64,000 bases of DNA. Origin: an uncultured Clostridia bacterium. Its GTDB lineage: Bacteria; Bacillota; Clostridia; UMGS1883. The stretch spans positions 29,250 to 93,249 of the forward strand of contig CANQRB010000004.1 of assembly GCA_947626145.1 (NCBI GenBank), given 5' to 3'. Made by a program: the position numbers and the translations under genes. The notes beneath the pieces were generated by a model. It saw nothing but the letters and a program-made list of their open reading frames with translations. It was not told the origin of the DNA and did not search any database. This document shows, piece after piece, positions 13,676 to 32,994 of this stretch (position 1 is the stretch's first letter; each line of letters begins with the position of its first letter).

Positions 13676-13704
13676 AAAAATTCCTCCTATCATATTATGA
13701 TTGT

Positions 13705-13728
13705 ATTTTAGCACAATTATGCTAAAAT
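13705..13728 (-). promoter_or_regulatory. 24-bp near-perfect palindrome (ATTTTAGCACAATTATGCTAAAAT) overlapping the putative TA promoter (TTGCAA-17-TAAAAT); likely antitoxin operator
   Basis: 22/24 palindromic. The -10 TAAAAT and -35 TTGCAA, read on the minus strand, overlap it. Confidence 0.45.
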
Positions 13729-13927: not shown

Positions 13928-16900
13928 TTATAAGGCTATCATACCATCAGTTTCATCATTACCATTAAGTTCTTCGTCCTTTTTGCCTGTGTTTTTATTC
14001 TCAGATATATCTCCTTCGAAAGCTGTTTCGACGGACTCTTCATTTTTAAGTTCTTTGCCTCCAAACTCATTACTGATATCCTTTATTGGCACTTTGTCTG
14101 GCAAGGATTCAATAGAAACTAGTGACTCTTCATCATGATAATTTATTAATATGCCATTAGATATTTTGAATACAGGCCAAGAGTTTCCTGATTGGTTAGA
14201 AGAAACTTTGTACACCTCAACTAAGTTATTTCCATTATATAACTCTACCTGTGCACCCGAAGTCGCCCAAGTACCTTCACCGTAGAACCAGTATACATAA
14301 TATTCATATGTGCTATTTATGTCCACTTCAAATGTAACGGTTTCCGGCCCTTCTCCATCGGTATCATCCACATCCAAATTGGCCACCAAATCTCCTGATG
14401 CATTATATCCGTTTCTGTTAGAAAAATATACATGAAAGTTTCTATGGTCTGAAAGGCTTCCAACCAAATGAGAGTCTAAGTCGCTGGGATTCATGTTCCA
14501 ACGAAGAACTGCCCTATATTGATTGCTAGTCATCGAAGGAGAAATGCTTCCATTTTGATTGGCAACTTCTCTTCCCCCAATTATTGTGACGTTGAAATAT
14601 CCGGTGGTGTATCCGTACTTTTCCATTTCTATTGTATAATACCCAGAGGATGCAGTTAGTGAATATTCACCACTACCGTTAGTTATTGTTGAAGATATTT
14701 CCTCACCTTTACTACTATTCCACCCGTTTCTCAACCTGACTATTACGCCATCAATAGGATATCCGGTTGTTGCGCTTGTAATAACGCCGCTTATTTTTCC
14801 TTCACCAGACTTTACAAGTTTAACAAGTTCTTCTGTTTGGTTGTCTTTTGTTACTGTCGCAAGCCCGTAGAAAGGCATATAACCGTCTTTTTCAATAACA
14901 ACAGAATATGTTCCCACATCAAGAGACAGTTCTTTTGCTCCCTCTGCGCCTATTTGAACTTTCCCAATCAAGAAATCATCATCAAGTATAGATATAGTTG
15001 CATCTTTTATAAATGTTTCATCTTCCGCATCAACAATTTGTATATAAAGAGTACCTCTATCCCCATATATACCAACATCATCAAATGCACGTTTTATAGT
15101 CATTTTTTCCGCTTTAGACAATCCCTGAGTATCAGCTTGAAGCAGTACATTTCTCCTTACGGTTTTAAAGTTAGAATTTGCACTGAAGCCCTTGCCCAAC
15201 GAACCATACCATAGGTCTATAAGCTTAGACATTGAAATGGCCGGAAGACTATAAGAGGGATAGCCTTGTGACATTAAATATGCAGCATGAGAAATTACTG
15301 ATGAATTCGTGTGAGCAAATACTGATTTATTACCAGTATTAGTGCACCAATTAGTTCCACCAACTTTACTGGGCTTATGGCAGGAAGATGGATCCTTAAC
15401 ATTTCTTAATGGTCGCCAGTCCTCCCCTATGGTATAGTTATTATCATCAACGAACCATCCAAAGATATCTGCGTATGCTTCGTTGATTGCATAAGATATA
15501 TGACCATTACTGTGATCGTGACTAAGTCCATTCCCTGTCTTAAACTGAACTACTCCATGAGTGTACTCATGAGCAATAATATCAAGTCCGCTGGCCGTAG
15601 TAGTTTGGAGATTACTGTCGTTATTACTATTATCATAAAAATAGAATTCTTTGTTGCCGCCTGTCCAACACGCATTACTACTGCCTCCAAATTTATGAAC
15701 AGTTACTTTAATAGGATATCCATTCCCGTCCACAGAGCGTCTGCCCAAAGTGTCCGCATACCAATTATATACATCTATCATATTGGTGTATGCAGAAATA
15801 GCCGTTTTATCTCGCCATACATTAAATTCACTGCCAACTCTACTATTAACAAGTCCCCCATCATACATTTTAATGTTTCTCTCTGAATCTTCCATATAGT
15901 AGAATAACCAATCCCATTGTTTAAATTGTACGGGGAATGACACTTCGGTATTTTTTTCATTTTCACCGCTACCAGTTACTCTTTTGTCGCCCCAGTCTAA
16001 AATATTGCTTCCAGAATAAATTACGGAACCAGTATATCCATTTATGATTACAGTTTCGTCAATATTGTCGCCAGACAAACAAATTACATATGCTACAACA
16101 GGACTTTGCTCATATTCATCAAGAGAATATATAACTACCTCTGTTGATACAACATCTACTGATTCTTGCGGGTACTGACTTTTAGCAATATTTATTGCTT
16201 CACTTTCTGATATCACGGGGTCGGTATTTACATCAACTAAGTTTGCAGATGCAACTACATCGGATGTTAATGAAGTAGATGTTCCATTATTATCTACAGA
16301 CACGGTTAAATTTCTATCATAAACGTCAAGCCCATTATATTGTTGACTAAAAGTATAATCAGTTCCGTATTTGCCAGAATTTGTCACAGATATATTTAAT
16401 TCTTTTATTGGATCGTTCATGCCAAGAATTGTTCGAACTCCGTATATTGCATAAAGAGCATCGTCTGGGGAGTTTATATCAATATCACTTATTTTACCAC
16501 TTATCGCTGTTACTTGGGATCCCTCTTCATTGTATTCTATATAAGTATCAAAATCTGCATCCTTATTCATTTGCTCTATATCGACAACTGAATTATTAGG
16601 AGACTCATTAATATTAAAGTTACTTTCTTTTATAACCGTAACTTCAAAAGATTTTGTTAAATTATAGTCTCCTTTCGATATGCTAGCGTTGAGTCTAACA
16701 TTTTTATTCTCATTTATCGGACGTGAGACGGAACCGCTTTCTGAAACTACATTAATATTGTTACTTTCCCATGATATATCTACTGTTTCAATCATTGTTG
16801 GTAAAATCAAATCATGAGTAACAGATTCTTTACAGTCACCTTTACTATATGTAATTTCAAGAGTATCATATGCATATTGAACTATCGCTTTATTAAATTC

Positions 16901-18259
16901 ATTCTCATCATATTCTACCCACCTTGCATACAAAGTTAATTTATTGTTAACGGCCAATTTAAAATCATAGATATTTTCGCAATCCCTATCAGTATACCAG
17001 CCACCAAACAAATAATCTTTACGTTCAGGGTCTTTGGGAATTGTAACATTATTTCCAGCTAAAATCTCTTGACTTTCAGGCGCATCCTCTGCCCCTTCAT
17101 AATTCAAATCAAAGGTGACAGTGTAAACGCCGTCCTCCTCAATTTCTTCTTCCCAACCAGCATACAGAGTCAAGCGCTCGGTAATTTCCGTGTTCTCAAA
17201 ATCAAACTCATAAACGCATTCCTCATCTGTGTACCAGCCCGTGAAGATATAGCCCTCTCTTTCGGGATCATCGGGACGCTCTGCATAATCGTTCTTCTTT
17301 ACTTTCTGGGTAGCCGGAGGATTTTTCGCTCCTGAATAATTCAGGTCAAATTTTACATTGTATCTCGTGGTGCCGCCGGAGCTTCCGCCACCACCGCCAC
17401 CACCGGTGGAACGACTTATCGTATATTCAACGCTCATCACATCGCTGACAAGAACATCATCTTTTACCGCGATTGCCTTCAGTGTCGCGGTAGACAGTAT
17501 ATTTATATTGCCACCTGTGTATTCCTCGCTGTCAACTGTGGGCTCTGTTCCATCGGTCGTATAGTAAATCTTAACGCCCTCGGTGTCGCTCTTAAGCGTT
17601 ACAAGCTGATTTACATAATATGTGCCCGCCTCAACGGACGCGACAGGGGCGGCTACCGTTGTGCGGAGACCGTTATAAACCATTACGGCAATGTCCCCAC
17701 GGGTAGAGGCTGATCCCTTTCTGCCCTTGAGGTTATCCGTTATACCGTTATCCTCAGCCGCTTTAATATAGCCGGCAGACCAATCATCAGGGTCGGATTC
17801 AACATCGTCGCCAAGACCGACGCCGCAAACCACCATCTTTATGGCCTCTTCATATTTGACGTCGTCATCCGGCATAAATCCGCCGCTACCGTTGCCGTTT
17901 ATTATCTCCTCTTTCGCGGCGACATTGATGTAGCCGCTGGCCCAGTGGTCGGCGGGAACATCGTCAAACTTTGTGGCGCCCTTGGAATTGCGGGCATCGT
18001 TCTCCTTGCCTATCATGCGGCATACTACCGCCGCCATTTCGGACCTTGTGATAGATTTATCCGCCCCAAATGTACCGTCGGCGTAGCCGGTGAAAATGTC
18101 GAGCTTTTCCAGAGCGAGAGCCGCCTCGGCGTAATACTCATTCCCCGTAACATCGGAAAAGACCGTGCCTGCGGCAAAAGCACCGATCGGCGCAAGCGAC
18201 AGTGTCATTGCCAAAACTAAAATGATGCTTAAAAATTTTTTCACGATTGTAACCTCCAA
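13928..18259 (-). CDS. SLH-domain-anchored thermolysin-like (M4) zinc metalloprotease. Order: signal peptide, 3 SLH, Ig-like, Listeria-Bacteroides-type repeats, PepSY/FTP propeptide, M4 catalytic domain, C-terminal beta-sandwich domains. Likely GTG start at 18244
   Basis: SLH repeats (FSDVTGNEYYAEAALALEKLDIFTGYADGTFGADKSITRSEMAAV...). GWYTD repeats. HEXXH as IIAHEYTHGVVQ plus downstream NEAYADIFG (thermolysin-type zinc ligands). Poly-Gly linker. GGAGGT lies 7 nt before the GTG. Confidence 0.85.
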   Translation of the reverse strand: MEVTIVKKFLSIILVLAMTLSLAPIGAFAAGTVFSDVTGNEYYAEAALALEKLDIFTGYADGTFGADKSITRSEMAAVVCRMIGKENDARNSKGATKFDDVPADHWASGYINVAAKEEIINGNGSGGFMPDDDVKYEEAIKMVVCGVGLGDDVESDPDDWSAGYIKAAEDNGITDNLKGRKGSASTRGDIAVMVYNGLRTTVAAPVASVEAGTYYVNQLVTLKSDTEGVKIYYTTDGTEPTVDSEEYTGGNINILSTATLKAIAVKDDVLVSDVMSVEYTISRSTGGGGGGGSSGGTTRYNVKFDLNYSGAKNPPATQKVKKNDYAERPDDPEREGYIFTGWYTDEECVYEFDFENTEITERLTLYAGWEEEIEEDGVYTVTFDLNYEGAEDAPESQEILAGNNVTIPKDPERKDYLFGGWYTDRDCENIYDFKLAVNNKLTLYARWVEYDENEFNKAIVQYAYDTLEITYSKGDCKESVTHDLILPTMIETVDISWESNNINVVSESGSVSRPINENKNVRLNASISKGDYNLTKSFEVTVIKESNFNINESPNNSVVDIEQMNKDADFDTYIEYNEEGSQVTAISGKISDIDINSPDDALYAIYGVRTILGMNDPIKELNISVTNSGKYGTDYTFSQQYNGLDVYDRNLTVSVDNNGTSTSLTSDVVASANLVDVNTDPVISESEAINIAKSQYPQESVDVVSTEVVIYSLDEYEQSPVVAYVICLSGDNIDETVIINGYTGSVIYSGSNILDWGDKRVTGSGENEKNTEVSFPVQFKQWDWLFYYMEDSERNIKMYDGGLVNSRVGSEFNVWRDKTAISAYTNMIDVYNWYADTLGRRSVDGNGYPIKVTVHKFGGSSNACWTGGNKEFYFYDNSNNDSNLQTTTASGLDIIAHEYTHGVVQFKTGNGLSHDHSNGHISYAINEAYADIFGWFVDDNNYTIGEDWRPLRNVKDPSSCHKPSKVGGTNWCTNTGNKSVFAHTNSSVISHAAYLMSQGYPSYSLPAISMSKLIDLWYGSLGKGFSANSNFKTVRRNVLLQADTQGLSKAEKMTIKRAFDDVGIYGDRGTLYIQIVDAEDETFIKDATISILDDDFLIGKVQIGAEGAKELSLDVGTYSVVIEKDGYMPFYGLATVTKDNQTEELVKLVKSGEGKISGVITSATTGYPIDGVIVRLRNGWNSSKGEEISSTITNGSGEYSLTASSGYYTIEMEKYGYTTGYFNVTIIGGREVANQNGSISPSMTSNQYRAVLRWNMNPSDLDSHLVGSLSDHRNFHVYFSNRNGYNASGDLVANLDVDDTDGEGPETVTFEVDINSTYEYYVYWFYGEGTWATSGAQVELYNGNNLVEVYKVSSNQSGNSWPVFKISNGILINYHDEESLVSIESLPDKVPIKDISNEFGGKELKNEESVETAFEGDISENKNTGKKDEELNGNDETDGMIAL

Positions 18260-19069
18260 TTTTATTTATTCACTTTCTAATTGCAGGAAAACACCGCCAC
18301 TGTATGTCACGCCCCCTTTTGGGCGAATTTGTCCTCCGTACAATAAAAAATGCGCAGCTCATCGGAGCCGCGCACGAAAAATGCTTAGCTCCGAATTTAC
18401 TGCGACATAAATTAATATAACACAAAAGAAACGCATTTTTGGCACTCGCTCATTAAAAATGCAACCAGAGCGTTACAGGAGCAGCATTTTTACCAATGCT
18501 AATGTTGCTCCGGTTAGCACTTTTATACGTTAGAATGTTAAAACAATGATAGAAAATATAGGTACTCAAAAAAGAGCGCAAAAAGCGAACTTAATAAGCG
18601 TTTCTATATTAATCTATGTCGCAAATAAAGTATACCACACATTTTTCCGGTTGTAAAGTGTTTTTTTTTCGTAAATGAATAATTTTTTATAACATATTCG
18701 CCGCGAAACCCATCTAGGCGCTTATCTTGCTGCTGAACGGCTCCCCGACTGTTTTACAAAAGAGTCGAACATTGCACAAATTCGTTCTTCGTAGGAAGGA
18801 GCTGCCACAACATTTCCCTCCTTTTGCTAAAAATTGTTCTTGGTCGGTTTTCCCCCCCTTTGTAATACCGGAACAATTTAAGTTATACAAAATCGGAAAT
18901 TTTTTTAAATTATCTGAAAAAGTCAAAATAAAAAGGACAGATTAATATCTATCATTCTCAGTATTCAATTACATCGCCTTTAAAAATCCCCTCCGGCGCA
19001 TGAGGGGGTTTACGCCGGAGAAAATTTTATATATCAAAGAGGCCCGTGCCTCTTAATTTTTGCGGCCGG

Positions 19070-19744
19070 TTATGCCTGAGTCGCGGCGTCCGTCTTGACT
19101 CTGCGGAAGCGCACCAGACCCGTACGGTGAAGGGCAACCATTATTGCCGGGATAAGCACAAGTTGAAGTATTATTCCGGGGATGGCGTTAAGCACCGCAG
19201 TCTGCGCAGGACAAAAAACCTGAAAAGATGTCGATTTCGCCTGACTTTGTTGGTCTATGTTGCATGGCGATCCGCTTCTGTGCAAGCTCAAAGATTTCTT
19301 CGTCAATTAACGGCTCATGCGTATTAGGTAAGAAATAGCGTTGTTCTGCCTCTTTTTCGACTTATACGAAACCTTGTGTGTTTTCTCAGTGATGATATGC
19401 CCTAAATACTTTTACCGTGTCAGGATGTCAAACAGCGTTTTCTCCGGCCATGTGTAAGGAGCGATCAAGGCTTTCTGATGTCGCGCATTCCTCGTCCGCT
19501 CATAACGTAATGCACCGATTGTCAAAACCTTGTTGTCGTCAAGCCATCGCTGAATATCGCACATCTGAGTATCCTTCACATACATGACGAAAATCTGCTT
19601 GACTATGAGATGTATCCGTATGGATATTCCCCGTTGACGTGCTCGCCCTTTTGAGTCCGCGCCTGCTTTGCGGCTCGGTGGTTGTCGCTCGGCATATTCT
19701 CTCGGATATGTGTCATGGCACACCCGCCGTATGGCTCGGCGCAA
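19070..19744 (-). pseudogene. Low-confidence gene fragments: a C-terminal membrane-protein remnant at 19070-19306 and an unidentified remnant at 19412-19744, inside a 2.4-kb region with no intact long ORF
   Basis: Only short, mutually overlapping ORFs on both strands; mixed GC; no RBS-supported starts. Confidence 0.2.
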
Positions 19745-20366
19745 AAGGGATGTGTCCTTTGTTGCTGTTATGATGCCTCGCTGTTATCTTGCGGGCAAAT
19801 TTGTCGAGGTTCGTACAGATGGGGAGTATCGGAAAGGGGGATTTATGCGCCGCTCCAGGTCGTCGGGTCAGTTCACCTGAAAAGTCAGAATTTTTGTAAT
19901 GAGCTTCGTTTCCAGTCTGCTGATCTTCGTCTACGCACAAATGAGGATTGCCATACTCGTCGTTTTCGATGTACACTGTATGATCCAGAATACCGAAAGC
20001 CCTGTCCTCTTTGAAATAACTGTCTCAGACTGAAAGCTGATTCATTACTTCAACAGGAAATTCGACAAAGAAAATCGCCTGCCTGCACATGGCAGGCGGG
20101 CGAAACGGAACTAACAGAAGTATTTACGTGATTTATGTGTTCATCTTCCTCGGCAGGGTATCCCGCTTGCTGGGTCAGACTTCTTTTGAGCGAAGAACCA
20201 TTGCCGGAATTTGTCGATATGGAATAGGCTTCATGGCGGCTACCTCCTGTTAGCCGCCATACCTGTTAGCCTGCAGTTTCTTCCCTTGTATCAAGAGAAA
20301 TGGCAGCCTATGAAAAACAAGCATATAACCAAGAGCAGCAGTATATAGGCTCTGCGTCTATGCGTC

Positions 20367-20513
20367 TTACTCTTTTACAACCTCGATCCGTAGGTGTTCC
20401 TCGTTAATCAGCGTTTTGCGTTTGCATTTGGGACAATACAACGGAAAGTTCTCCAGAATGGTATCTTCCAGTATTTTAATTCGTGTTTTGCTTTTACAAA
20501 CAGGACACAACAC
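20367..20513 (-). CDS. Cys-rich KTR-type small zinc-ribbon protein (about 48 aa, non-ATG start GTG/TTG)
   Basis: Translation (M)LCPVCKSKTRIKILEDTILENFPLYCPKCKRKTLINEEHLRIEVVKE: two CPxCK motifs with the typical KTRxK spacing. Confidence 0.5.
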   Translation of the reverse strand: MLCPVCKSKTRIKILEDTILENFPLYCPKCKRKTLINEEHLRIEVVKE

Positions 20514-20716
20514 CAAAACGCTTTTATTTACTCCGATTCGAACTACTCCCTGCGAATTGCAATAAGTGTTTTAAACTATTACCCTCAACAAAGCACAACA
20601 ACCAGATATTTCCTGACGGCAATTTTTTGCGAAATGATTCCCGTAATTATCGTCGATGCATTGCTGTGAGCAGGTATTTATTTTGTAAAAAGTCGTTGCT
20701 GCCCGTATTTTAATTT

Positions 20717-21340
20717 TTACGATTTTTTGAACTTCGTTTTAAGCGCCTCAAAGTTTGCTTTCAGCTTGGCACGCTCAGCTTCCATTTTCTGCTTGCGTTC
20801 TGCGCTACGCTCAGCGTGCATCTTACGGCGAGCTTCGTCGGCAAGTTCTTTTTCTACGCGCATTGCTTCTTCTACCTCGTCCTGTACCAATGTAGCATCG
20901 CGTCGAAGAATCGTCGTTTGAAACTTATCGAACCGAAAATCCAGTGCATGATCTGTTTCCTCCTGCGCAAGGAGAAGAATCGCGACCTCACCGTCCTCCA
21001 GCTTTGATCCAACCGTTTCCAGCATTGTGTTGTTCCGATCCACATCATCAATGTCTTTGGCGCTTCCAATCAGATGACCTGTCATACCACCCAAAAGGAT
21101 GCCGAGAGGACCACCGAGAATTCCGATCAGACCGCCAATCAGACCGCCCGCGAGGGCGTCATCGCTGCTGTCCATGCCGCTTGTGAATGAGTCTATGGTG
21201 GAAATTATATTACCGTTTTTCTTTACAAGCGCCCCTTGCAATACGGTATATTGCGGCATAATTGGCTGCTTTTTGATTCCCATGTAGGCTTGATAGCCCT
21301 CGCTTTCCACATTGAACAAAATAGTTAAGACATTTTCCAT
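20717..21340 (-). CDS. Hypothetical protein with a glycine-zipper segment and a C-terminal charged coiled coil
   Basis: GGLIGGLIGILGGPLGILLGGMTGHLIG, then ERSAERKQKMEAERAKLKANFEALK. Confidence 0.5.
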   Translation of the reverse strand: MENVLTILFNVESEGYQAYMGIKKQPIMPQYTVLQGALVKKNGNIISTIDSFTSGMDSSDDALAGGLIGGLIGILGGPLGILLGGMTGHLIGSAKDIDDVDRNNTMLETVGSKLEDGEVAILLLAQEETDHALDFRFDKFQTTILRRDATLVQDEVEEAMRVEKELADEARRKMHAERSAERKQKMEAERAKLKANFEALKTKFKKS

Positions 21341-21538: not shown

Positions 21539-21988
21539 TTATCTCCTGTTTGCTTTTTTCAGTTCCTTTTGGGCGGCTTTGATTTCCCGTTGCAGTTCGT
21601 CAAGTTCCTGTTCCAGTGCGTCGGCAATATAATCTCCGGTAATCACAGCGGCACGAATCATACAGGCGGTGCTTACAATGGCATCCTCCACCTCTTTTCC
21701 GAGTCCGAGGAGTTCCAGAGAACCTGTGCCGTTTTCATCGTACAGCACCACGTCCGGAATCCCGTTTTTATCCGTGTCTCCGAAGTACAGATTGAATTCT
21801 CCGTCGCCGGTGAGATCCACCGCCAGCGTGTCAATATCTCCGTCGCCGGTGGTATCAAGCAAAGCCAAATCCGCTTCTTTATCTCCGTCAATATCGATCA
21901 AAATCTCGTCTTTTCCACTGCGAAGCAGTGTCTTGTGCCAGTCGCGGTCAAATTTCATTTTAGTTTTCAATTTTCTGAGGGTTCCCAT
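21539..21988 (-). CDS. Hypothetical protein with Asp/Gly-rich calcium-binding-like repeats (DxDGD) and a C-terminal coiled coil
   Basis: DIDGDKEADLALLDTTGDGDIDTLAVDLTGDGEF...DTDKNGIPD resembles EF-hand/dockerin-like loops. Confidence 0.45.
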   Translation of the reverse strand: MGTLRKLKTKMKFDRDWHKTLLRSGKDEILIDIDGDKEADLALLDTTGDGDIDTLAVDLTGDGEFNLYFGDTDKNGIPDVVLYDENGTGSLELLGLGKEVEDAIVSTACMIRAAVITGDYIADALEQELDELQREIKAAQKELKKANRR

Positions 21989-22089: not shown

Positions 22090-22401
22090 AGGGGATGATG
22101 CCGGCAATTTCTGACGCAACAAGCACCCCACCCCTGTGGTGGCCGGGTAGTGTTTAACTTCGAAATAAATCAATGAAATCATTAGTAATCTTATAACTTC
22201 TCCCTTGATTTATTCCGTTTCATCCGATCCCATTTTTGCAGCAGCCTCTTTATAGAAACATCCAAATATCCAATATAATTTTGCCACCGTAAAATCCGCT
22301 TATGATAGGGGCCTTCCTTTCCAAAAAACTTGTTGGATTGATACCGTCTCTGCCGCTTCTCACAAATCATGATAGCAGAGAAATCTAAACTGAAACGAAA
22401 C
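22090..22401 (-). pseudogene. Degenerate partial duplication scar: copies of the relQ-operon promoter motif, the GT8 3' end and the pgsA-like 5' end, fused and decayed
   Basis: 22300-22401 aligns to 24640-24725 (promoter/leader of the SAS gene). 22105-22290 aligns to 22830-23100 with indels. No intact ORF. Confidence 0.55.
22369..22401 (-). promoter_or_regulatory. Copy (a) of the shared promoter motif, in the degenerate duplicate: GTTTCGTTTCAGTTTAGATTTCTCTGC-TATCAT on the minus strand
   Basis: Matches the motif at 24693-24725, 28689-28721 and 31643-31676. Confidence 0.4.
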
Positions 22402-22414
22402 TGTCTTTTTTCTT

Positions 22415-22987
22415 TTATTTGTGCGGAACAGGATTGTTTTTACTCAAAATATGCTTATAGTATCGGATATAAAGGATGAGAGACATAATCATCAAACATC
22501 CGCTTATTAGAATTAGACCATTTGCTATTTTCAATGGGATATCGGGGAAAAGGATAAGCACAGATATAACAATATACAAAAAAACTGTGTTCAACTTTCC
22601 ATACCATTTTGCGCTGTTGACAGTATCTTTTCGTTTCAAAGCAAGATATCCAAGCGTGGCCATGCAGATTTCTTTTCCGATAAACAATACGATCAGAACA
22701 GACATCCACTTATACCGACTCGAAAGGCAGACAATAAGTACACATTGCGTCAATTTATCCGCTATGGGGTCTAATATCTTGCCAAGATCGGATACCATAT
22801 GGAACTTCCGTGCAATGATACCATCAGCAATGTCCGTAATTGCTGACGCGACAAGCACTCCTGTGGCTGCTTGGTAGTGTTTGACCCCGATATAAAGCCA
22901 TACGATCAGCGGGATCATCAGTAATCTTATAACGCTAAGCAAATTCGGTATGGTCAGGATTTGGTCTTTTTTGAATATCCTGTGCAT
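22415..22987 (-). CDS. CDP-alcohol phosphatidyltransferase family protein (PgsA-like)
   Basis: DIADGIIARK...GKILDPIADKL motif (D-G-x2-A-R...G-x3-D-x3-D) and multiple TM helices; RBS AGGGAGG. Confidence 0.8.
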   Translation of the reverse strand: MHRIFKKDQILTIPNLLSVIRLLMIPLIVWLYIGVKHYQAATGVLVASAITDIADGIIARKFHMVSDLGKILDPIADKLTQCVLIVCLSSRYKWMSVLIVLFIGKEICMATLGYLALKRKDTVNSAKWYGKLNTVFLYIVISVLILFPDIPLKIANGLILISGCLMIMSLILYIRYYKHILSKNNPVPHK

Positions 22988-23005
22988 TGAATATCCTCCC
23001 TTAAT

Positions 23006-23851
23006 CTATTCCGTTTCATCTGATCTCATTTTTGCAACAGCCTCTTTATAGAACACATCCAAATCTCCGATATAATTTTCTTTCCACGGTTTATTCCTTC
23101 CGCAGTAGTGAATTATAATGGAGTGCTTTCGTACCCAATTCAAATCAAGACTTTTTTCAAATGGACTGTGCACCCGATAAAGCCACTCTGTCATGTTATA
23201 TCGAAATGGGTCCAGCGTATAGATTTTGCTGCCATACAGGCTGCTGATAATGTCCTGATCCGGAAAGACAAGATGAGATTTTCTCTTTTCGATGAAGTGA
23301 AACACATCCGCATAGTCCTGCTCTTTCCGTAAAAGCGAGAGGTTCATGAGCAACACGCCGGAATTAATATATGGGCTGTTGTCATCCATATCCAGACGCA
23401 GTTCATTGAACTTATGGAGAAACCCAAGACTGTCAATGTGTGACGCTGCCGCATAATAGTATTCTTCCATCGAGGTCTGATACAGTGGAAGAATCGAACC
23501 ATTGAGAACAAGATCGGGGTCAAGATAGAGCACGCGGTCGAGAGTCTCCGGCAGATAGCGTGCAGCAAAAATACGGTAATAAATCTCTTGTGGATAGCGC
23601 GAAGTTGTTGGGGCCTCGTCAAGCGCCAAATAATCAGCCTTTATTGGGATCAGACATCCTCCTGCCTTAAAAAGCATTTTTTCGGTTGCTTTAAGCGCCT
23701 GCTTTGAAATTGAGGAATGAAGAAGATACACATGGAATACGCAGCCTGGGTTGGAGCGAATCAAGGTTGAAAGCATCACATTCAAATAGGGGATGTAGTT
23801 TTCATCCAAAGTAACAAGAATATTAATCGGATTTATCAATCCAGGATTCAT
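23006..23851 (-). CDS. Glycosyltransferase family 8 (GspA / LPS-galactosyltransferase-like)
   Basis: GT8 pattern NILVTLDENYIPYLNVMLSTL, DxD-like LDPDLV, YINSGVLLMNL. Strong RBS AGGGAGG before the internal ATG at 23851; the ORF-track start at 23899 lacks an SD. Confidence 0.8.
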   Translation of the reverse strand: MNPGLINPINILVTLDENYIPYLNVMLSTLIRSNPGCVFHVYLLHSSISKQALKATEKMLFKAGGCLIPIKADYLALDEAPTTSRYPQEIYYRIFAARYLPETLDRVLYLDPDLVLNGSILPLYQTSMEEYYYAAASHIDSLGFLHKFNELRLDMDDNSPYINSGVLLMNLSLLRKEQDYADVFHFIEKRKSHLVFPDQDIISSLYGSKIYTLDPFRYNMTEWLYRVHSPFEKSLDLNWVRKHSIIIHYCGRNKPWKENYIGDLDVFYKEAVAKMRSDETE

Positions 23852-23917
23852 TTTAATCCCTCCCTGTTTCTTATGTTGTATATAGTCTTCTTCACCCATT
23901 CACAAATCCTACCATTT

Positions 23918-24625
23918 CTATCGTGGTTTCAGAGTATTTTTATTTTGTTGGGTCTTTTTTAAGAGGTTATCCATTCTCCGATCAAGTTCCGCGCTGAGGT
24001 TTGCGCACTGATAAAGTTCCTCAGCCATTTCCGGGGTAAATGCAGAATCCTTTTTATAACGAAGCTGATGTTCAAGGCTGGCCCAGAAATCCATCGCTAT
24101 CGTGCGCAGCTGAATTTCTACTTTCATCATCCGTTTTTCATGTGCCAAAAAGATCGGAATTGCTACAATCAGATGCAGACTTCTATATCCGTTGGGTTTC
24201 GGGTTTTTTATGTAGTCCTTTTTTTCAATCAGGGTAATGTCATCCTGTATGAGCAATGCCTCTGACAGCGCATAAACATCGTCCGGAAATGAGCAGATTA
24301 CTCGAACACCGGCAATATCGTTTAGATTTTCTTCTATAGAGGAAAGTGTGGGCGGGATGCCCCGCCGCTCCAATTTTTCTTTTATGCTGCGGGGATTTTT
24401 CAGTCTGGTTTTGATACTGCTTATCGGATTACGGTCGAATTCCAAAGAATATTCTTCATTCAACACATTGAATTTTGTTTCAATCTCCATCATGGCACAT
24501 TTGTAATAGGACATCAGGCGGATAAAAGGTACAGATTTTCTCTGCATCCAGTCGATTGTCTGATCGTCCACAATAGAGAGCATTCGTGTTTTTATATTTT
24601 CATCCTCTTGATTCCATTCAGACAT
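23918..24625 (-). CDS. Small alarmone synthetase (RelA/SpoT-domain GTP pyrophosphokinase, RelQ/RelP/YwaC-like)
   Basis: Single-domain RelA_SpoT synthetase motifs (GVRVICSFPDDVY...YRSLHLIV...EIQLRT). The track start is TTG; the likely start is ATG 24625 with AAGGAAG RBS. Confidence 0.8.
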   Translation of the reverse strand: MSEWNQEDENIKTRMLSIVDDQTIDWMQRKSVPFIRLMSYYKCAMMEIETKFNVLNEEYSLEFDRNPISSIKTRLKNPRSIKEKLERRGIPPTLSSIEENLNDIAGVRVICSFPDDVYALSEALLIQDDITLIEKKDYIKNPKPNGYRSLHLIVAIPIFLAHEKRMMKVEIQLRTIAMDFWASLEHQLRYKKDSAFTPEMAEELYQCANLSAELDRRMDNLLKKTQQNKNTLKPR

Positions 24626-24692
24626 TCTGATCTTCCTTTCCAAAAAACAAAGCTTGTTGGATCAATACCGGCTCTGCCGCTTTTCGCAGGTA

Positions 24693-24726: not shown

Positions 24727-24758
24727 ACGACGGACCCTTCGAAAAAGAAGAATCCGTC
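24727..24758 (-). terminator. Candidate terminator of the Hsp70 operon (gacggattcttctttttcgaagggtccgtc then TTGTTTTGTTT on the minus strand), abutting promoter motif (b)
   Basis: Nested hairpin followed by a T-rich tract in the minus-strand direction. Confidence 0.35.
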
Positions 24759-24818: not shown

Positions 24819-26588
24819 TCAAGCTGCAAGGCAGCGAGCGTTGGCGCTGGATTGCTCCAGCCGGTCAGATGCTGCTTTGATTGCAGCCATCTCACTTTCA
24901 GTTACGGTTTCCGGTTTATATTTGCCAAGCAACTTTCGTAATGCAGAACAGTCTTCTTTAATCTGCTTTTTTTCTTCTTTTTCAAGCTGCTTCCCAACTT
25001 TGTGCAATGCCTGTTCAGCTTCTGATAATACCTTCCCTGCGCGATTAACCATTTCTAAAGAGTTACGGCGAACACCATCCTGTGCCGCATACTGTTCCGC
25101 ATCGCGAATCGCCTGTTCAATCTCCGCATCGGACATTTTATCATTGTTCGAAATGGTAATAGACTGTGCTTTCCCCGTATCCAAATCTCTTGCGGACACT
25201 TTTAAAATTCCATTGGCATCAATGTCGAAAGTAACTTCAATCTGCGGCACTCCTGCGGGGGCTTTCTTAATTCCGTTAAGTTTGAATTTGCCGATGGTCT
25301 TATTATCGCGTGCCATTGGCCGTTCTCCTTGTAGAACATGAATTTCCACACTGCTTTGAAACGGTGCCGCGGTTGAAAAAATCTGTGAATAGTGAATGGG
25401 CAAAGTGGAATTTCTCTCCACAAGACGTGTTGCGACACCGCCTACTGTTTCAATAGAAAGGCTGAGAGGGGTAACATCCAAAAGAAGGATACCGTTTTCC
25501 GAACCGGCAATCTGCAGCGAACCGCCAGAAAGCGTGTCTCCCTGAATGGCGGCGCCCTGAGCAACACACTCATCCGGATTGATATTCTTTGACGGTATAA
25601 TACCGGTCAATTGACGCACTTTTTCCTGAACAGCGGGAATACGGGTTGCGCCTCCGACAAGGATGACCTTGCCAAGTTCGGATGGCGCAATACCAGCATC
25701 ATTCAAGGCGTTCTGTACCGGAATTGCTGTTCGATCCACAAGATCGCGGGTCAGCTCGTTGAATTTGGCACGGGTGAGGATAGTATCAAAGTGTATTATG
25801 CCGTCCTTTTCCTGGGCCAGGTACGGCAGGCTTATCATAGCGTTCTCTGAGCCGGACAGTTCCTTTTTTGCCTGTTCAGCCGCTTCACGCACACGCTGCA
25901 ATGCTACATAATCTTTTTTTACATCTGTATGATACTGCCTCTGAATTTCCGAAATCAAATACTCAGTGATACGCTCATCAAAGTCATCGCCGCCCAAATG
26001 GTTATCACCATTTGTTGCCAGAACTTCTATAACGCCGTCTCCAATCTCAATGATGGAAACATCAAAAGTACCGCCGCCAAGGTCATATACCATGACCTTT
26101 TGCTGTGTTCCGTTATCCAGCCCGTAAGCAAGCGCGGCGCTGGTTGGCTCATTAATAATCCGTTTTACATTTAAGCCTGCAATTCGCCCGGCATCTTTTG
26201 TGGCCTGTCGCTGAATATCGTTAAAATAAGCGGGTACAGTGATGACCGCGTCCGTCACTTCCTCTCCAAGAAAGGCTTCTGCATCCTTGCGCAGTTTTCG
26301 TAGAATCATTGCACTGATCTCCTGCGGCGTAAATCTTTTACCGTCAATATTGATAGTCCAATCCGTCCCCATGTGACGTTTCACAGACGAAACGGTTCGG
26401 GACGCATTAGTAACCGCCTGTCGTCTTGCCGTTTCACCCACTAACCGTTCACCGGATGCGGTAAAAGCAACAATGCTGGGAGTGGTTCTTCCGCCTTGTT
26501 CGCTTGGAATGATAACGGGTTTGCCGCCCTCTACAAAAGCGACGCAGCTATTCGTTGTTCCAAGATCAATACCGATTGTTTTTCCCAC
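24819..26588 (-). CDS. Hsp70-family chaperone, atypical (not in an hrcA-grpE-dnaK-dnaJ context); probable GTG start giving [12 protein letters not shown]
   Basis: Actin-like NBD motifs [13 protein letters not shown] and [12 protein letters not shown], an SBD and a C-terminal lid; RBS AAAGGATGG before GTG 26588. Confidence 0.85.
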
Positions 26589-26605
26589 AGTAATTCCATC
26601 CTTTC

Positions 26606-27406
26606 CTACATACATCTAAGGCAGCCAAATGGGCCGCATAGGAATTGCATGGCTAAAAAGCCAAAACATATTTTTTGTATATTAGTGGCTTCCATATCGA
26701 AGCCTTTTGCATTTTGTTCATAGGTTTGCTCTGAACGGCGAAATTTTTGCAAAAGCAGATGATAGGTGCGATTATTCGGCTCCATTTGTGATGCTCTCTG
26801 CATATGGTCGATTGCCTGAACGGTGTTACCAAGACCATGATTGGCAAGAGCGCTTAAATAATACCACCTTGCACCTCGTCCTACGCTCGGTATACGGGTC
26901 AAAATCCAAATTGCCTCTTGATAGCGATGGTTATTGATTTCAGTAATGGCCTGCCTGATTTCCATATTGTCGCCCGGCTCAGGCTGCGGATTCATAAAAA
27001 CGGCATCATCATTGCCGTTCCGTTCAAATCCAAATCCAAAAATATTCCCAAAGTCAAAGCCGCCAAAATCGCTCGACCAGCCACCCGGACCTCGATAACC
27101 GCCAGAGCCGCCCTGCCTTTCATATCCGGTTCCACTATAACCGCCGTTTTGATTTTCCGTATATCCCCCATATTGCCTACTCTGTCCGTAAGATTGGCGC
27201 TGCTGTGCTCGCCTTGCCTCATACTTCTGCGGATTCATCAACATATCGTAGGCTTCATTCACCGCATTCATTTTTTGGCTCGCGGTCGGATCATCGGGAT
27301 GCAAGTCAGGATGATATTGCTTTGCCTTTTGACGATATGCTTTTTTTATTTCTTCTTTAGTCGCTCCTTTAGGAACGCCCAGAGTTTGATAAGGGTCATT
27401 GACCAT
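26606..27406 (-). CDS. J-domain protein (DnaJ-like N-terminus, Gly/Tyr-rich linker, TPR-like C-terminus)
   Basis: J-domain with HPD ([34 protein letters not shown]); lacks the DnaJ zinc-finger/CTD architecture. Confidence 0.8.
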
Positions 27407-27409
27407 GGC

Positions 27410-28228
27410 TCACTTTTTCCTTTCCGTCTGCATTTGCCGGTTATATTTGATCCAAACGCCAGAATAAAGAATGTTCCTTAAAATGTGGGCGTCCTGGACA
27501 AGCGGCAGCGATTCAAAGGCTTCAGCAGCTTCTCCGAGAATGGTCTTCAGCATGGAGCGGATTTCTTCCTGACTCAGAGTGACAGAAGAAAAAGGATTAT
27601 AACTTCCTTTTTTCTGGTCATGCCTTAAATCAATCGCGGCATCGGCAAGATAGATATACTTTCCGATATGATAACCAAACTTCTGCAAACGCGGCATCCA
27701 GTGATCCGGCTCAACCACAAAAATCGTTGACATCAATCTGCCAAAGCTGTTGGCTGCCGCATCTGGAGAGGCGAAGCAGGATTTCTCAATTTCAGAGATT
27801 TCATTTATTTCCTTTTCGATGATCGAACACTGATCTTTTCTTGCTGCTCTGACTTCTTCATAAGCCTTTTTAAGCAGAGTGGCATAGCACTTGTGGGAGA
27901 TATTTCGATCATCGTTCCAGTCGTCAAGACATTTGAAGTATGTCAAGGCTATTGTCATATCGGCGGCATAGTCTATATATTTACCGGACAGATAATTATG
28001 TTTCTTGCATGGATGCACGGCACATCGCACCGCTTTGCTGGTTTCCTCCGGTTCATACAAGGATGATAAAAACATAGCCAAGAATGTCAGATCGTATGTC
28101 AGTCCCAATCGCGACCTAAATCCATACCTTTCCCCCAACGCATGACACAATCCGCAATAAAAGGCACGATACCGTTCTTTTTCTTCATCAGTAAGACCGG
28201 ATAAATTGGCCTGTATGATTCCAAACAT
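27410..28228 (-). CDS. Conserved hypothetical protein (Cys-containing; in my recollection the kind of DUF found next to non-canonical dnaJ/hsp70 genes in Clostridia)
   Basis: No recognisable catalytic motifs; tightly packed between the J-protein and Zn-ribbon genes (3-nt and 9-nt gaps). Confidence 0.55.
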   Translation of the reverse strand: MFGIIQANLSGLTDEEKERYRAFYCGLCHALGERYGFRSRLGLTYDLTFLAMFLSSLYEPEETSKAVRCAVHPCKKHNYLSGKYIDYAADMTIALTYFKCLDDWNDDRNISHKCYATLLKKAYEEVRAARKDQCSIIEKEINEISEIEKSCFASPDAAANSFGRLMSTIFVVEPDHWMPRLQKFGYHIGKYIYLADAAIDLRHDQKKGSYNPFSSVTLSQEEIRSMLKTILGEAAEAFESLPLVQDAHILRNILYSGVWIKYNRQMQTERKK

Positions 28229-28237
28229 AGTGCCACC

Positions 28238-28648
28238 TCATGTTTTGCGGGTTATTTTGCCTTTACATACCGGACAAGTGATTTCAATTTGCCCTTTTCC
28301 TTTCGGAACTCGTAGCCAACTTTTGCAGTTCGGACATTTATAATACCGATGCGTCTTTCGATCTCGCCACATATTTTTCCGACGTTTGAAACTCTGCTTC
28401 ACTTTGTCTGTATATTTCAAGAAAGTTTCCCGCTCCTTCTGTCGTTTTTCAAGATTGCGGGAAAAGCTGCGAAACATCGACCAAATCAACAGAATCATCG
28501 CAATCGGATATAGCAGAGGGACGAGCGGGGAAATGAGTACGAAAACCAGCACCGCAATCAATAGAAATTTGGAAAGCTCGTCATAGCCGTATCTTCCGTA
28601 CATCCATGCCTGCATTTTTTCTCCGAGCCTTTGCAACCATCGTTTCAT
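28238..28648 (-). CDS. Membrane-anchored zinc-ribbon protein
   Basis: One TM helix followed by CPNCKSW...CPVCKGK (two CxxC pairs). Confidence 0.6.
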   Translation of the reverse strand: MKRWLQRLGEKMQAWMYGRYGYDELSKFLLIAVLVFVLISPLVPLLYPIAMILLIWSMFRSFSRNLEKRQKERETFLKYTDKVKQSFKRRKNMWRDRKTHRYYKCPNCKSWLRVPKGKGQIEITCPVCKGKITRKT

Positions 28649-28928: not shown

Positions 28929-29714
28929 TTATCCAATGCCTCTGAAAGCATTAACGGAAAGAATCGCCACGCCTAAAACCGTCAGCACCACACCAACAGC
29001 CCTGTTGAGCGTTTTGGCGCTGGCCTTGTTTGCGAACAATGCGGCGATCCTTGCCCACAACAGAGTAAACGCCACGCAGAGAGCGAGACACCATAGGTCG
29101 GGCATATCGCCAATGGCAAAATGACTGACGGCGCCGGTCAGCGCGGTAAAGGTCATAATAAAGACACTGGTACCCACAGCGGTTTTTAATTCATATCCCA
29201 AAATGCTGGTCAACAGAAGCAGCATCATCATTCCACCGCCTGCGCCCACAAAACCACAAATGAAGCCGACGACCATTCCGCAGACAATCGACTGAATCGT
29301 CCGCTTTTTTGCGCTTACGACAGCCATCGCCTCCTTTGTGGTCATGACAGGTTTTACAATAAATTTGATGCCCAAAAGCATCGTCATGAAGACGGAGAAG
29401 CTGCCCATAGTGGCGTTGGAGACCAGACTGGCTACCCAACTGCCTACTAAGGTGAAAAGCAAGACGGCCACCATCATAACAAGCCCGTTGCGAATGTCGA
29501 TGTTTTTGTTTTTTCCATAGGTATAGGCGCTGACCGCACTTGCCAGCACGTCACTTGCCAGAGCGATGCCTACCGCTTCATAAGCCGGCATACCCATAAA
29601 TGTGATCAGCATTGGGCTGATGACTGCGGCGGCGCTCATTCCGGCAAAACCGGTTCCCAAACCCGCTCCGATACCTGCTATAAAACAAACTAAAACTTTT
29701 ACCCACAGATTCAT
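28929..29714 (-). CDS. TSUP/TauE-SafE family membrane transporter (likely start MNLWVK at 29714)
   Basis: Gly-rich TM helices (GIGAGLGTGFAGMSAAAV...GGGMMMLLLL) typical of TauE/SafE; the internal ATG gives the typical about 260-aa length. Confidence 0.7.
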   Translation of the reverse strand: MNLWVKVLVCFIAGIGAGLGTGFAGMSAAAVISPMLITFMGMPAYEAVGIALASDVLASAVSAYTYGKNKNIDIRNGLVMMVAVLLFTLVGSWVASLVSNATMGSFSVFMTMLLGIKFIVKPVMTTKEAMAVVSAKKRTIQSIVCGMVVGFICGFVGAGGGMMMLLLLTSILGYELKTAVGTSVFIMTFTALTGAVSHFAIGDMPDLWCLALCVAFTLLWARIAALFANKASAKTLNRAVGVVLTVLGVAILSVNAFRGIG

Positions 29715-29845
29715 TTTGCGTTTTTCTCCATATATTTTTTTATATTCTTTTCCACCCGCGTTATGTAGGACTGAAACTGCCGCTGACCTCTTTGTCAAGA
29801 TCGTCTGCGATGATATCCGCAAAATCGAAGCACTCTGATAAAAAA

Positions 29846-30940
29846 TCAGTTTTTCTGGCTTTCTTCTTCTGCATTTAGCTTTGATTTCGGCAATGTAACC
29901 GTAAACATGGTAAGATTGTTTTCGCTTTGAACCGAAACCGTTCCGTTGTGCAATTCCACCACTTTTTTGACAATTGCAAGCCCGATTCCGTTTCCCTCAC
30001 CGGAGTGTGAACTGTCAGCCTGATAAAATTTCTGAAAGATTCGTGATATACTTTCCGCAGGAATTTCCTCTCCCGAATTGATGATATCCACGGACAGGGA
30101 AGACGGTTGATTTTTAATATTGACTTCAATGACTCCTCCAGCGGGAGAAAATTTGATCGCGTTATCCAGCAGATTGATCCACACCTGTTTCAAAAGCTCC
30201 TCATTGGCAGAAATCCTGTATTCACCGAAATCCACTTTAAAGTCCAGTTGCTTTTTTTCCCACTTGTCGGCAAGCAACAGGATGGAAGACCGGATTTGTT
30301 CTGAAAGGTTAAACTTTACAACATCCGTTAAAATCGTTTGATTTTCTACCCGCGTCAGATTCAACACGTTTGTCGCCATATCAGAAAGCCGCAGAGATTC
30401 TTCTTCGATAACCGCCAAATATTCCCCTTTTTGTTCTTCTGTCAGGTTGCCTCGGCGAAGCAGCTTTGCAAAGCCGGCAATAGATACGATGGGCGTTTTG
30501 AATTCATGCGAAAAATTATTTACAAAATCCCCACGAAGCATCTCTGTATTTTTGAGTTCAGAAGCCATTCGATTGAAGCTGTGCGAAAGCTGCGAAAAAG
30601 TAGGATGTTTGGATATGGGCCATCCGAAATCCAATCGGGCACTGAAATCACCGGATGCCAGCCGATCGATTTGATAAATTACATTCCGCAGGGGGCGGGC
30701 GGATATTTTACTGGATAAATAGGCAACAATGACACCGACAATATTACTGATGACGATCATGTAGAGGATGATAATACCGATGTTTGATCGGATATCGGTA
30801 TCAAGCGTGACAACTTGAAAATGTACCAGCATATAAATAATAGAAGCGGTTATTGAAGTAATAATAAATTGAATGAAAAAAATAAGTGTCGATATTAAAA
30901 ACGTGAGCGCAAAATAATGTTTTCGATTTTGTTTGTTCAT
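29846..30940 (-). CDS. Intramembrane-sensing sensor histidine kinase (two N-terminal TM helices with a short loop, HisKA, HATPase_c)
   Basis: H-box SHEFKTPIVSIAGFAKLL; N/G1/G2 boxes (LLDNAIKF, GEGNGIGLAIVKK); the extracellular loop is only about 14 aa. Confidence 0.85.
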   Translation of the reverse strand: MNKQNRKHYFALTFLISTLIFFIQFIITSITASIIYMLVHFQVVTLDTDIRSNIGIIILYMIVISNIVGVIVAYLSSKISARPLRNVIYQIDRLASGDFSARLDFGWPISKHPTFSQLSHSFNRMASELKNTEMLRGDFVNNFSHEFKTPIVSIAGFAKLLRRGNLTEEQKGEYLAVIEEESLRLSDMATNVLNLTRVENQTILTDVVKFNLSEQIRSSILLLADKWEKKQLDFKVDFGEYRISANEELLKQVWINLLDNAIKFSPAGGVIEVNIKNQPSSLSVDIINSGEEIPAESISRIFQKFYQADSSHSGEGNGIGLAIVKKVVELHNGTVSVQSENNLTMFTVTLPKSKLNAEEESQKN

Positions 30941-31611
30941 ACTTTTTTCACCGCCTTATATCCGAGCCCGCGCACGGATTCGATATCAAATTCTTCCCAA
31001 CCCTCGAACCGTTTGCGGAGCCTGCCGATGTGAACCGTCACAGTTTCCCACCCGGTATCGCTCTCAGCGCCCCAGATTTCATCCATCAGTTGAATCCGTG
31101 TAAAAATCTTTCCGGGGTATGACAGCAATTTATAAAGTAACAAAAATTCCTTTTGCGGGAGTTCTTGTGTCTCGCCGTTTTTGGTCACGGTAAAGGAATC
31201 GTAATCCAAAATTACATTTCCAATCGTCATTTTACGTTCGTTGGCAATTTGAGCGCGGCGTAGAAGTGCTTTGATTCGCCAGAGCATTTCTTCCTCATCA
31301 ATCGGTTTTGTCATGTAGTCGTCAATCCCTAATGAAAAACCTTTATGTTTATCTTCGGGGAGCTGTTTTGCCGAAACCATAAGAATGGGAAGATTGTTCT
31401 TGCTTTCGCGGAGGATTTTTGTAAATTCATATCCGTCCATTTTCGGCATCATTATGTCGAGAATCACAAGGTCAATATACTCTTTATCCATTACATCGAG
31501 GGCGTCTTCACCGTTTTCCGCAGTAAATACAGAATAGTGCTCCGTTTCAAGCACGGCTTTGAGCAGCCGGCGTGTATTTTTATCGTCGTCTACAACAAGA
31601 ATTTGGAACAT
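30937..31611 (-). CDS. OmpR-family response regulator (REC plus winged-helix), 4-nt overlap with the kinase gene
   Basis: Receiver motifs DDD/D55-like (LVILDIMMPKMDG) and T/K; C-terminal trans_reg_C (TVHIGRLRKRF...LGYKAV). Confidence 0.9.
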   Translation of the reverse strand: MFQILVVDDDKNTRRLLKAVLETEHYSVFTAENGEDALDVMDKEYIDLVILDIMMPKMDGYEFTKILRESKNNLPILMVSAKQLPEDKHKGFSLGIDDYMTKPIDEEEMLWRIKALLRRAQIANERKMTIGNVILDYDSFTVTKNGETQELPQKEFLLLYKLLSYPGKIFTRIQLMDEIWGAESDTGWETVTVHIGRLRKRFEGWEEFDIESVRGLGYKAVKKV

Positions 31612-32870: not shown

Positions 32871-32880
32871 CAAATATAAA

Positions 32881-32994
32881 AATCTAACGATTACTCAATA
32901 ATCCAACGATTACCCCAAAAAACTAACGATTTCCCATAAAACCAACGATTTCCCATAAATCCAACGATTTCCCATAAATCCAACGATTACACGG
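32881..32994. repeat. Iteron-like array: about six contiguous direct repeats of a 19-20-bp unit (consensus CCAACGATTTCCCATAAAT)
   Basis: Units at 32881, 32900, 32922, 32941, 32961 and 32980; the core AACGATT recurs every 19-21 bp. Confidence 0.7.

Follow-up and report, generated by a model that had tools for sequence, protein, structure and literature searches.

What places a small alarmone synthetase at the head of an operon with two enzymes of membrane-lipid and glycoconjugate chemistry, and what switches such an operon on? The question is raised by a 64,000-nucleotide stretch of DNA from an uncultured Clostridia bacterium (assembly GCA_947626145.1, contig CANQRB010000004.1, positions 29,250 to 93,249), hereafter the window, in which genes for a small alarmone synthetase (SAS), a GT8 glycosyltransferase and a CDP-alcohol phosphatidyltransferase (CDP-OH) follow one another. 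Small alarmone synthetases are among the main routes by which Firmicutes become antibiotic-tolerant, and their wiring is almost undescribed for the dominant, mostly uncultured gut Clostridia. A preliminary description of the locus had proposed an operon under a shared stress motif that couples alarmone synthesis to lipid modification. We consider it probable that the three genes are controlled by a nearby response regulator (RR) through a 17-nt promoter box, with predicted alarmone and lipid outputs.

Operon layout and the shared promoter box

The three open reading frames occupy the minus strand in the order SAS-GT8-CDP-OH, where they had previously been placed (Table 1). Gaps of 18-66 nt (depending on the GT8 start) and 18 nt separate SAS from GT8 and GT8 from CDP-OH, each with a ribosome-binding site, and from 24700 to 22415 the minus strand has no terminator-like hairpin. 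The Hsp70 operon upstream is closed by an intrinsic terminator (24758-24729) that folds with -18.9 kcal/mol (z=-4.1), a value equalled in none of 200 shuffled sequences, and whose T-tail extends into the box of the SAS promoter, P3. Because of the close gaps, the ribosome-binding sites and the presence of a terminator upstream and of none inside, we infer that the three genes are co-transcribed as one unit from P3. The operon-like layout and the domain calls of the preliminary description, the latter through Pfam matches, are upheld. The leader of SAS is no more stably folded than shuffled sequence (z=+0.6 and +0.86) and is not conserved in the distant loci L007, L020 and L046; when SAS upstream regions are aligned, the only invariant columns are the box and the -10 element. 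A riboswitch or other leader RNA ahead of SAS was considered and rejected, since the leader has no Rfam match, is unstructured and is unconserved in distant loci.

The box, GTTTCGTTTCAGTTTAG, has four matches in the window at up to three mismatches, against 0.17 expected, and all four lie on the minus strand. Exactly 10 nt past the box, each of the four sites carries a -10-like hexamer (Table 1). In place of a -35 element stand direct repeats, TTT(C/A)G ... TTTAG, spaced at an 11-bp period, and the repeat unit, TTTCG/TTTAG, has a third, central copy. The shared motif of the preliminary description is thus real, and it is better read as a box for an OmpR-type RR than as a sigma-factor stress promoter. 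P1 precedes the operon of such a regulator and its histidine kinase (HK), which sit 5 kb upstream of the SAS operon. P2 precedes a Zn-ribbon/DUF5685/DnaJ/Hsp70 operon, whose gene order is also found in L010, L019, L020 and L046; the operon has DnaJ and Hsp70 genes without GrpE.

The fourth promoter, P4, begins 13 nt past the CDP-OH stop codon. Between it and p149 the cassette is present a second time in decayed form, recognized through direct-repeat families D1 (86%), D2 (91%), D3, D4 and D6, with identities of 86% to the SAS leader, 91% to the GT8 3' end and 74-83% to the CDP-OH 5' end. This copy, which today serves p149 as a ~380-nt 5' region, is, as judged from these repeats, the scar of a cassette duplication and deletion. 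Such active rearrangement would suit an alternative in which cassettes have only been shuffled, adjacency being due to chance and the genes being effectively independent through internal promoters or processing. The same alternative can call on one weak sigma-70-like match within GT8. We regard it as quite unlikely: promoter-like matches number 11 in total, below the 15.4 expected from shuffled sequence, the short gaps hold ribosome-binding sites and no hairpins, and box promoters stand at both ends of the unit here and in L099.

Regulator and box across relatives

A sample of 176 loci, gathered via SAS, CDP-OH and individual homologues, was used for comparison. The box with its -10 element is present in 30 of the 31 loci with an RR homologue that is 70% or more identical and in none of the five with only a 30-70% homologue, and none was found in long SAS loci of genomes without an RR homologue. 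A further 23 loci have the box and no RR in the compared piece; apart from L101 and L175, these are contig- or flank-cut copies of RR arrangements, or the edge of the piece falls within the RR. Altogether, 39 distinct box promoters share the box/spacer/-10 geometry, with the consensus GTTTcGTTTCAGTTTAGAtTt.t.tg.TAt.aT. The first gene after the box is the RR in 11 of these contexts, SAS in 10, FtsH in four, the Zn-ribbon protein in three and a phospholipid operon in three; in the remainder it is a fused ABC_tran+FtsX gene or paired ABC exporters. In L015, L016 and L099, RR, HK and SAS are directly adjacent. With direct repeats over the -35 position, a fixed 10 nt to the -10 hexamer and sites ahead of both the RR and several targets, the box is a putative RR binding site. 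Because it tracks the RR across loci, this assignment is likely on strong indirect evidence, and the same association indicates that SAS is a core member of the predicted RR regulon.

The HK has two transmembrane (TM) segments joined by a loop of ~12 residues and followed by a HAMP domain, a layout that is, by its predicted topology, of the intramembrane-sensing type. In the PDB, the matches are to generic OmpR-family proteins; identities as PhoB, MtrA or VanR were rejected, all models scoring far under cut-off. The system extends to a prevalent human-gut species, in which an RR of 77% identity is accompanied by perfect boxes ahead of a Flavodoxin-PlsY-DAG kinase-CDP-OH-PlsC-CdsA operon and ahead of FtsH. 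A search of viral contigs for the box gave no match, and a plasmid collection yielded distant homologues only. An analogous cluster without the box occurs in a cultured gut species, on the megaplasmid of E. eligens ATCC 27750 (L097; NC_012780.1, 606376-618876), with genes for MarR, a phospholipase-D-family protein, an RR (52% identity), a HAMP kinase, FUSC, a CDP-alcohol phosphatidyltransferase (43%), a bile salt hydrolase and FtsH. From the bile salt hydrolase there is a hint that bile is one relevant stress.

Could the signal instead be an antimicrobial peptide? In a Bce/Vra-type resistance module against peptide or lipid-II antibiotics, SAS would provide tolerance and the lipid enzymes would lower drug binding; this overlaps with the regulon proposed here and differs in the signal only. 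An intramembrane-sensing HK would serve such a module, the box-driven genes of relatives encode, among others, paired ABC exporters and a fused ABC_tran+FtsX transporter of ~1000 aa, the clusters contain members of the VTT/DedA family, and VraRS induces relP/relQ on vancomycin (PMC10117726). No ABC-FtsX gene is present in the window; what is left is its usual companion p149, homologues of which in L018 and L020 come after a box-driven ABC_tran+FtsX gene. In addition, no resistance-family equivalog was matched, and the regulon is made up mainly of genes for proteostasis (FtsH, Hsp70/DnaJ) and bulk phospholipid synthesis (PlsY/PlsC/CdsA), a content in keeping with general membrane damage, for instance by bile or solvents. 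The antibiotic module is therefore held as a minority possibility.

In 10 of 80 species-level genomes that lack the two-component system, a Zn-ribbon homologue is also encoded downstream of SAS, at a distance of no more than about 60 nt (L031, L036, L048, L054, L063, L068, L073, L075, L078 and L087), and in some box-bearing loci (L001-L003, L018) the Zn-ribbon gene stands just upstream of SAS with a box of its own. The Zn-ribbon membrane protein may thus act together with SAS, as its partner, or regulate it.

Table 1. Positions of the features discussed; the final row refers to compared loci, all others to the window.
Feature	Position	Strand	Details
Promoter P1	31643..31675	minus	box with 2 mismatches, 10 nt, TATCTT; ahead of regulator gene
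Response regulator (RR), OmpR-family	30937-31611	minus	first gene of operon 28929..31611
Histidine kinase (HK)	29846-30940	minus	P1 operon
TauE-family membrane protein	28929-29822	minus	P1 operon
Promoter P2	28689..28721	minus	perfect box, 10 nt, TAAAAT
Zn-ribbon membrane protein	28238-28648	minus	136 aa; P2 operon (24819..28648)
DUF5685 protein	27410-28228	minus	P2 operon
DnaJ-TPR protein	26606-27406	minus	DnaJ domain, TPR-like C-terminus; P2 operon
Hsp70/DnaK paralogue	24819-26615	minus	P2 operon
Intrinsic terminator of upstream Hsp70 operon	24729..24758	minus	12-bp stem, T-rich tail
Promoter P3	24693..24725	minus	box GTTTTGTTTCAGTTTAG 24725-24709, 10-nt spacer, TATCAT 24698-24693
5' untranslated region of SAS	24626..24686	minus	short, without significant structure
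SAS, RelP-type small alarmone synthetase	23918..24625	minus	235 aa from ATG 24625; PF04607
GT8 glycosyltransferase	23006..23899	minus	PF01501 E=2e-35; probable start ATG 23851
CDP-OH, CDP-alcohol phosphatidyltransferase	22415..22987	minus	190 aa; PF01066 E=2e-37
Promoter P4	22369..22401	minus	perfect box 22401-22385, 10 nt, TATCAT 22374-22369
Decayed second cassette copy	22129..22368	minus	leader copy, GT8 3' end remnant, CDP-OH 5' end remnant
p149	21539-21988	minus	downstream of P4
DUF1269 membrane protein	20717-21340	minus	downstream of P4
tRNA, long variable arm	33157-33244		beside low-GC block
Cys_rich_KTR open reading frame	20367-20513		48 aa; E=2e-23
SLH/M4 peptidase	13928-18259		1443 aa; island
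ParE/Phd pair	13093-13714		island
ECF sigma factor + ABC transporter	8472-12933		island; also in L017
BcrAD_BadFG/DUF2229 protein	L101 9404-13630; L174 7567-11817; L175 7582-11832; L176 7626-11876		1408-1416 aa; directly after CDP-OH or CdsA

The alarmone synthetase and the putative lipid gene pair

SAS starts at ATG 24625, with a TTG at 24643 as the alternative. Its sole match in the Pfam scan is RelA_SpoT (PF04607, E=3e-33, residues 79-199), so that it comprises a single synthetase domain without hydrolase or regulatory domains. The motifs RxKxxxSxxxK, DIAGVR, YRSLH and EIQLRT are present at residues 74, 103, 147 and 170 and align with those of S. aureus RelP. Among solved structures, S. aureus RelP (6EWZ) is the best match, with an end-to-end alignment at 180.6 bits (E=3e-52), followed by B. 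subtilis YwaC (6FGK, 173.6 bits); the RelQ/YjbM structure is clearly weaker at 126 bits, and the RelQ equivalog model scores 170.8 bits, under its cut-off of 320. The preliminary label of RelQ/RelP type is thereby narrowed: by these scores SAS is of the RelP (SAS2/YwaC) type, not the RelQ type, and is predicted to synthesize (pp)pGpp. The alarmone enzymes of C. difficile reportedly make pGpp, so the product of SAS need not be (p)ppGpp.

It is highly improbable that SAS serves a toxin-antitoxin or anti-phage system as its toxic effector and that its neighbours are unrelated. The PADLOC model PDC-S33 does match the catalytic domain (E=3e-24) and a ParE/Phd pair exists elsewhere on the same island, but only positions 64-175 of 349 are matched, which is the shared RelA_SpoT domain, and the alignment with the housekeeping RelP runs end to end. 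No small antitoxin reading frame is adjacent, the neighbours being GT8 and the terminator/promoter region, and SAS homologues are ubiquitous across Clostridia genomes, where they look single-copy. A phage or defence origin was likewise rejected, given the domain-level PADLOC match and the lack of the box in the viral contigs searched.

GT8 combines the family domain with a DxD metal site, here LDPD at residue 110, an NSGV at 163 and the C-terminal HxxGxxKPW signature (HYCGRNKPW, 248). ATG 23851 is likelier to be its true start than 23899, as the resulting 281 aa match the length of homologues and a GGGAGGG ribosome-binding site lies ahead. No TM segment was predicted in GT8, a soluble protein. 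The nearest structure is 3TZT (E=3e-62), an entry without assigned function. GspA of B. subtilis may be a stress-induced relative of the GT8 family. CDP-OH, in turn, is a polytopic membrane protein, with hydrophobic stretches over most of its length, and carries the complete motif D-x2-DG-x2-AR-x8-G-x3-D-x3-D at residues 52-77 (DIADGIIARKFHMVSDLGKILDPIAD). SAS, GT8 and CDP-OH thus all have their catalytic motifs intact.

Among CDP-OH homologues of 57-82% identity on long contigs, GT8 lies directly upstream of CDP-OH in six independent arrangements (L099, L100, L101, L102, L175 and L176), and GT8 followed by CDP-OH is, from this recurrence, a conserved lipid gene pair in its own right. The pair is surrounded by genes for glycerolipid enzymes. 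In L101, the order is PlsC-GT8-CDP-OH-CdsA, preceded by FtsH, DegV, FakA and PlsY; in L102, it is PlsC-VTT-GT8-CDP-OH-DAG kinase. In L175 and L176, the pair is followed by a 1416-aa BcrAD_BadFG/DUF2229 protein, members of which recur directly after CDP-OH or CdsA (Table 1). The single-gene plasmalogen synthase of E. faecalis is encoded by 4,248 bp and is a member of the 2-hydroxyacyl-CoA dehydratase family (PMC12838417). By size and family only, the 1408-1416-aa protein is a probable plasmalogen synthase, PlsA. The clusters that hold it repeatedly include a Flavodoxin_3 gene, whose product could be its electron donor. The presence of CdsA beside CDP-OH in several relatives implies CDP-diacylglycerol as the CDP-OH donor. 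The lipid reading of the two enzymes in the preliminary description thus gains support from neighbouring PlsC, PlsY, CdsA, DAG kinase, FakA/DegV and the probable plasmalogen synthase.

These neighbours also bear on a different role for the pair, namely the building or anchoring of a cell-wall glycopolymer, such as a lipoteichoic-acid-like polymer or a glycoprotein, rather than phospholipid modification. The solved GT8 relatives 1G9R, 5GVV and 6U4B act on lipo-oligosaccharide, serine-rich glycoproteins or O-antigen, and model scores do not fix the acceptor of CDP-OH, both of which would accommodate a glycopolymer. Nevertheless, the genes around the pair are those for phospholipid synthesis listed above, not polymerases, flippases or lipoteichoic acid synthases, and we deem a glycopolymer unlikely.

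How firmly is SAS tied to this pair? A GT8 or CDP-OH gene lies within 10 kb of SAS in only 5 of 80 species-level SAS loci, and no publication describing the arrangement was found, which bears out the earlier remark that the pairing is unusual. Elsewhere, SAS is found beside VTT/FtsH (L001), ABC-FtsX (L017, L018), GT8 alone (L015, L021) or CDP-OH alone (L020). Such differences in gene content between close relatives are what cassette shuffling would produce. Against shuffling as the whole explanation, SAS, GT8 and CDP-OH come together again in box-bearing clusters of distant relatives: L175 and L176 each hold SAS, FtsH, GT8 and CDP-OH in one such cluster, with CDP-OH only 57% identical, and in L099 box promoters flank the unit on both ends, as in the window. 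A box also lies ~110 nt upstream of GT8 in L176 and ahead of FtsH-CDP-OH in L174. SAS and the GT8-CDP-OH pair are thus each found without the other and together again in L099, L175 and L176. The coupling of alarmone and lipid genes that had been proposed is supported at the level of the regulon, not as a fixed unit: the link appears recurrent and modular, with the tri-cistronic form as one arrangement among several.

Island setting, known systems and the proposed circuit

The SAS operon, RR-HK and the box promoters sit in what is, by composition, an acquired low-GC island: a block of ~29 kb (~4500-33400) has 40-46% G+C, and its flanks, with prfB and the chorismate pathway, 56-60%. A tRNA gene lies beside the block. 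No integrase reading frame was found in the window, nor any repeat of the tRNA region of at least 13 nt at the far end of the island that could serve as an attachment site; neither the integrase nor the flanking attachment repeats of an integrative mobile element were thus found. An integrase is adjacent in L016 and L099, of phage type, beside close relatives of the RR-HK-SAS-GT8 cassette, and identical copies occur in metagenome contigs. Other island features are listed in Table 1. The 2.4 kb at 18260-20716 are gene-poor; a serine-recombinase pseudogene suspected by eye in 19188-19976 (fragments 19188-19744) had no Pfam support and was dropped, and Rfam gave no match on 18200-20750 at a permissive E <=0.1. 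At ~32880-32990 of the minus strand, about five or six units of ~19 nt, GGGAAATCGTTGGATTTAT-like, are repeated in tandem; they separate the tRNA from the region of a small reading frame of helix-turn-helix-like type and could be iterons or a binding array.

Several known systems share features with this one. In S. mutans, relP is in an operon with relRS (PMC4963387). There, as here, a RelP-type SAS is tied to an OmpR-type two-component system, the likeness being one of gene order (RR-HK-SAS, seen in L015, L016 and L099), and ABC exporters lie near some of the present loci as rcrPQ lies near relPRS (PMC4963387). Unlike relPRS, the SAS described here has its own box promoter and inferred co-transcription with lipid enzymes, and the system is located on an acquired island with a regulon of several operons. 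In B. subtilis, SigM and SigW control ywaC (sasA). The relP/relQ genes are under the control of S. aureus VraRS and of B. subtilis WalR (PMC10117726). In each case, as proposed here, an envelope-stress regulator induces SAS transcription and leads to tolerance; the regulator families and binding sites differ, and SAS in those species is monocistronic or accompanied by unrelated genes, with no GT8 or phosphatidyltransferase partner described. The promoters themselves most resemble those of streptococcal CiaRH, where CiaR recognizes the repeat TTTAAG-N5-TTTAAG at 10 nt from the -10 element (PMC3091779). Both have a direct repeat of 11-bp period in place of the -35 element, 10 nt upstream of the -10 hexamer, and CiaRH is an envelope-stress two-component system of the kind proposed here. 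They differ in the repeat (TTTCG/TTTAG with a third, central copy), in the RR, which reaches the cut-off of no equivalog model, and in regulon content. On the lipid side, CDP-OH shares with PgsA and ClsA the fold family, size and complete catalytic motif, with CdsA adjacent in several relatives. The mycobacterial pgsA1-patA-pimA cluster joins a phosphatidylinositol (PI) synthase, an acyltransferase and a glycosyltransferase, which together produce a glycosylated phospholipid. By analogy, the PlsC-(VTT)-GT8-CDP-OH orders of L101 and L102 may reflect a similar clustering of phosphatidyltransferase, glycosyltransferase and acyltransferase, except that the glycosyltransferase is GT8 rather than GT4 and that PI-phosphate synthase models match CDP-OH very weakly, at 22 bits.

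In the circuit that we propose, a membrane perturbation would be sensed within the bilayer by HK, which would phosphorylate RR; RR would then activate the four box promoters and, with them, its own operon, Zn-ribbon/DUF5685/DnaJ/Hsp70, SAS-GT8-CDP-OH and p149/DUF1269. The RelP-type SAS would raise (pp)pGpp, leading to slower growth and tolerance, with the chaperone/Hsp70 set as a further output. GT8 and CDP-OH would change the head-group composition of phospholipids, most likely by way of an anionic phospholipid made from CDP-diacylglycerol, with GT8 glycosylating the product or serving its acceptor. In relatives, the outputs would also include FtsH, transporters and the de novo synthesis of phospholipid and plasmalogen. 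The box promoters exist and track the RR; every step beyond this we infer.

Several points weigh against this circuit. No NCBIfam model gives RR or HK a named equivalog at cut-off, and no terminator was found after CDP-OH to mark the 3' end of the transcript. The neighbours of SAS vary among relatives, and the tri-cistronic arrangement is therefore confined to the lineage of the window. To date, characterized GT8 enzymes act on lipopolysaccharide, glycoproteins or polysaccharides, not phospholipids, so that the glycolipid step rests on gene neighbourhood. Finally, CDP-OH scores 87.1 bits with the pgsA equivalog TIGR00560, under the cut-off of 109.1, and 85.2 bits with the ClsA equivalog NF053678, under that of 240. 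Since it also has only 28-32% identity to annotated pgsA genes, it is not filed as PgsA. The classification by hidden Markov models suggested in the preliminary description thus confirms family PF01066 and neither of the two equivalogs, and the PgsA-like label is kept as a resemblance, not a membership. CDP-OH is better described as a putative PgsA/Cls-like accessory paralogue, stress-regulated and often paired with GT8. Taken with these points, the control of the P3 operon by the RR box remains the reading that we favour.

Searches of the literature for the box sequence, DUF5685 and the combination of GT8, CDP-alcohol transferase and SAS found no description of the system. The co-transcription of SAS with lipid enzymes, the box, the regulon and the GT8-CDP-OH pair appear undescribed; regulator-controlled RelP is already known. 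We take the SAS-GT8-CDP-OH operon to be one of the modules from which a membrane-stress regulon, spread horizontally among gut Clostridia, is built. More tentatively, and with considerable doubt, an undescribed, horizontally exchanged regulon of intramembrane-sensing HK, OmpR-type RR and nearly invariant 17-bp box may join alarmone growth arrest to a novel glycosylated phospholipid, possibly a plasmalogen, made by GT8-CDP-OH, and a membrane insult specific to the gut, for example by bile acids, could be the signal. As it stands, the locus offers a concrete circuit, with an HK, an RR, a precise 17-bp box and defined outputs, in which membrane-lipid synthesis and the proteostasis of the membrane would be linked to the production of alarmone and which appears to be island-borne between species. 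The box lets the regulon be predicted in any genome, and the GT8-CDP-OH pair points to a phospholipid species not yet assigned to genes.

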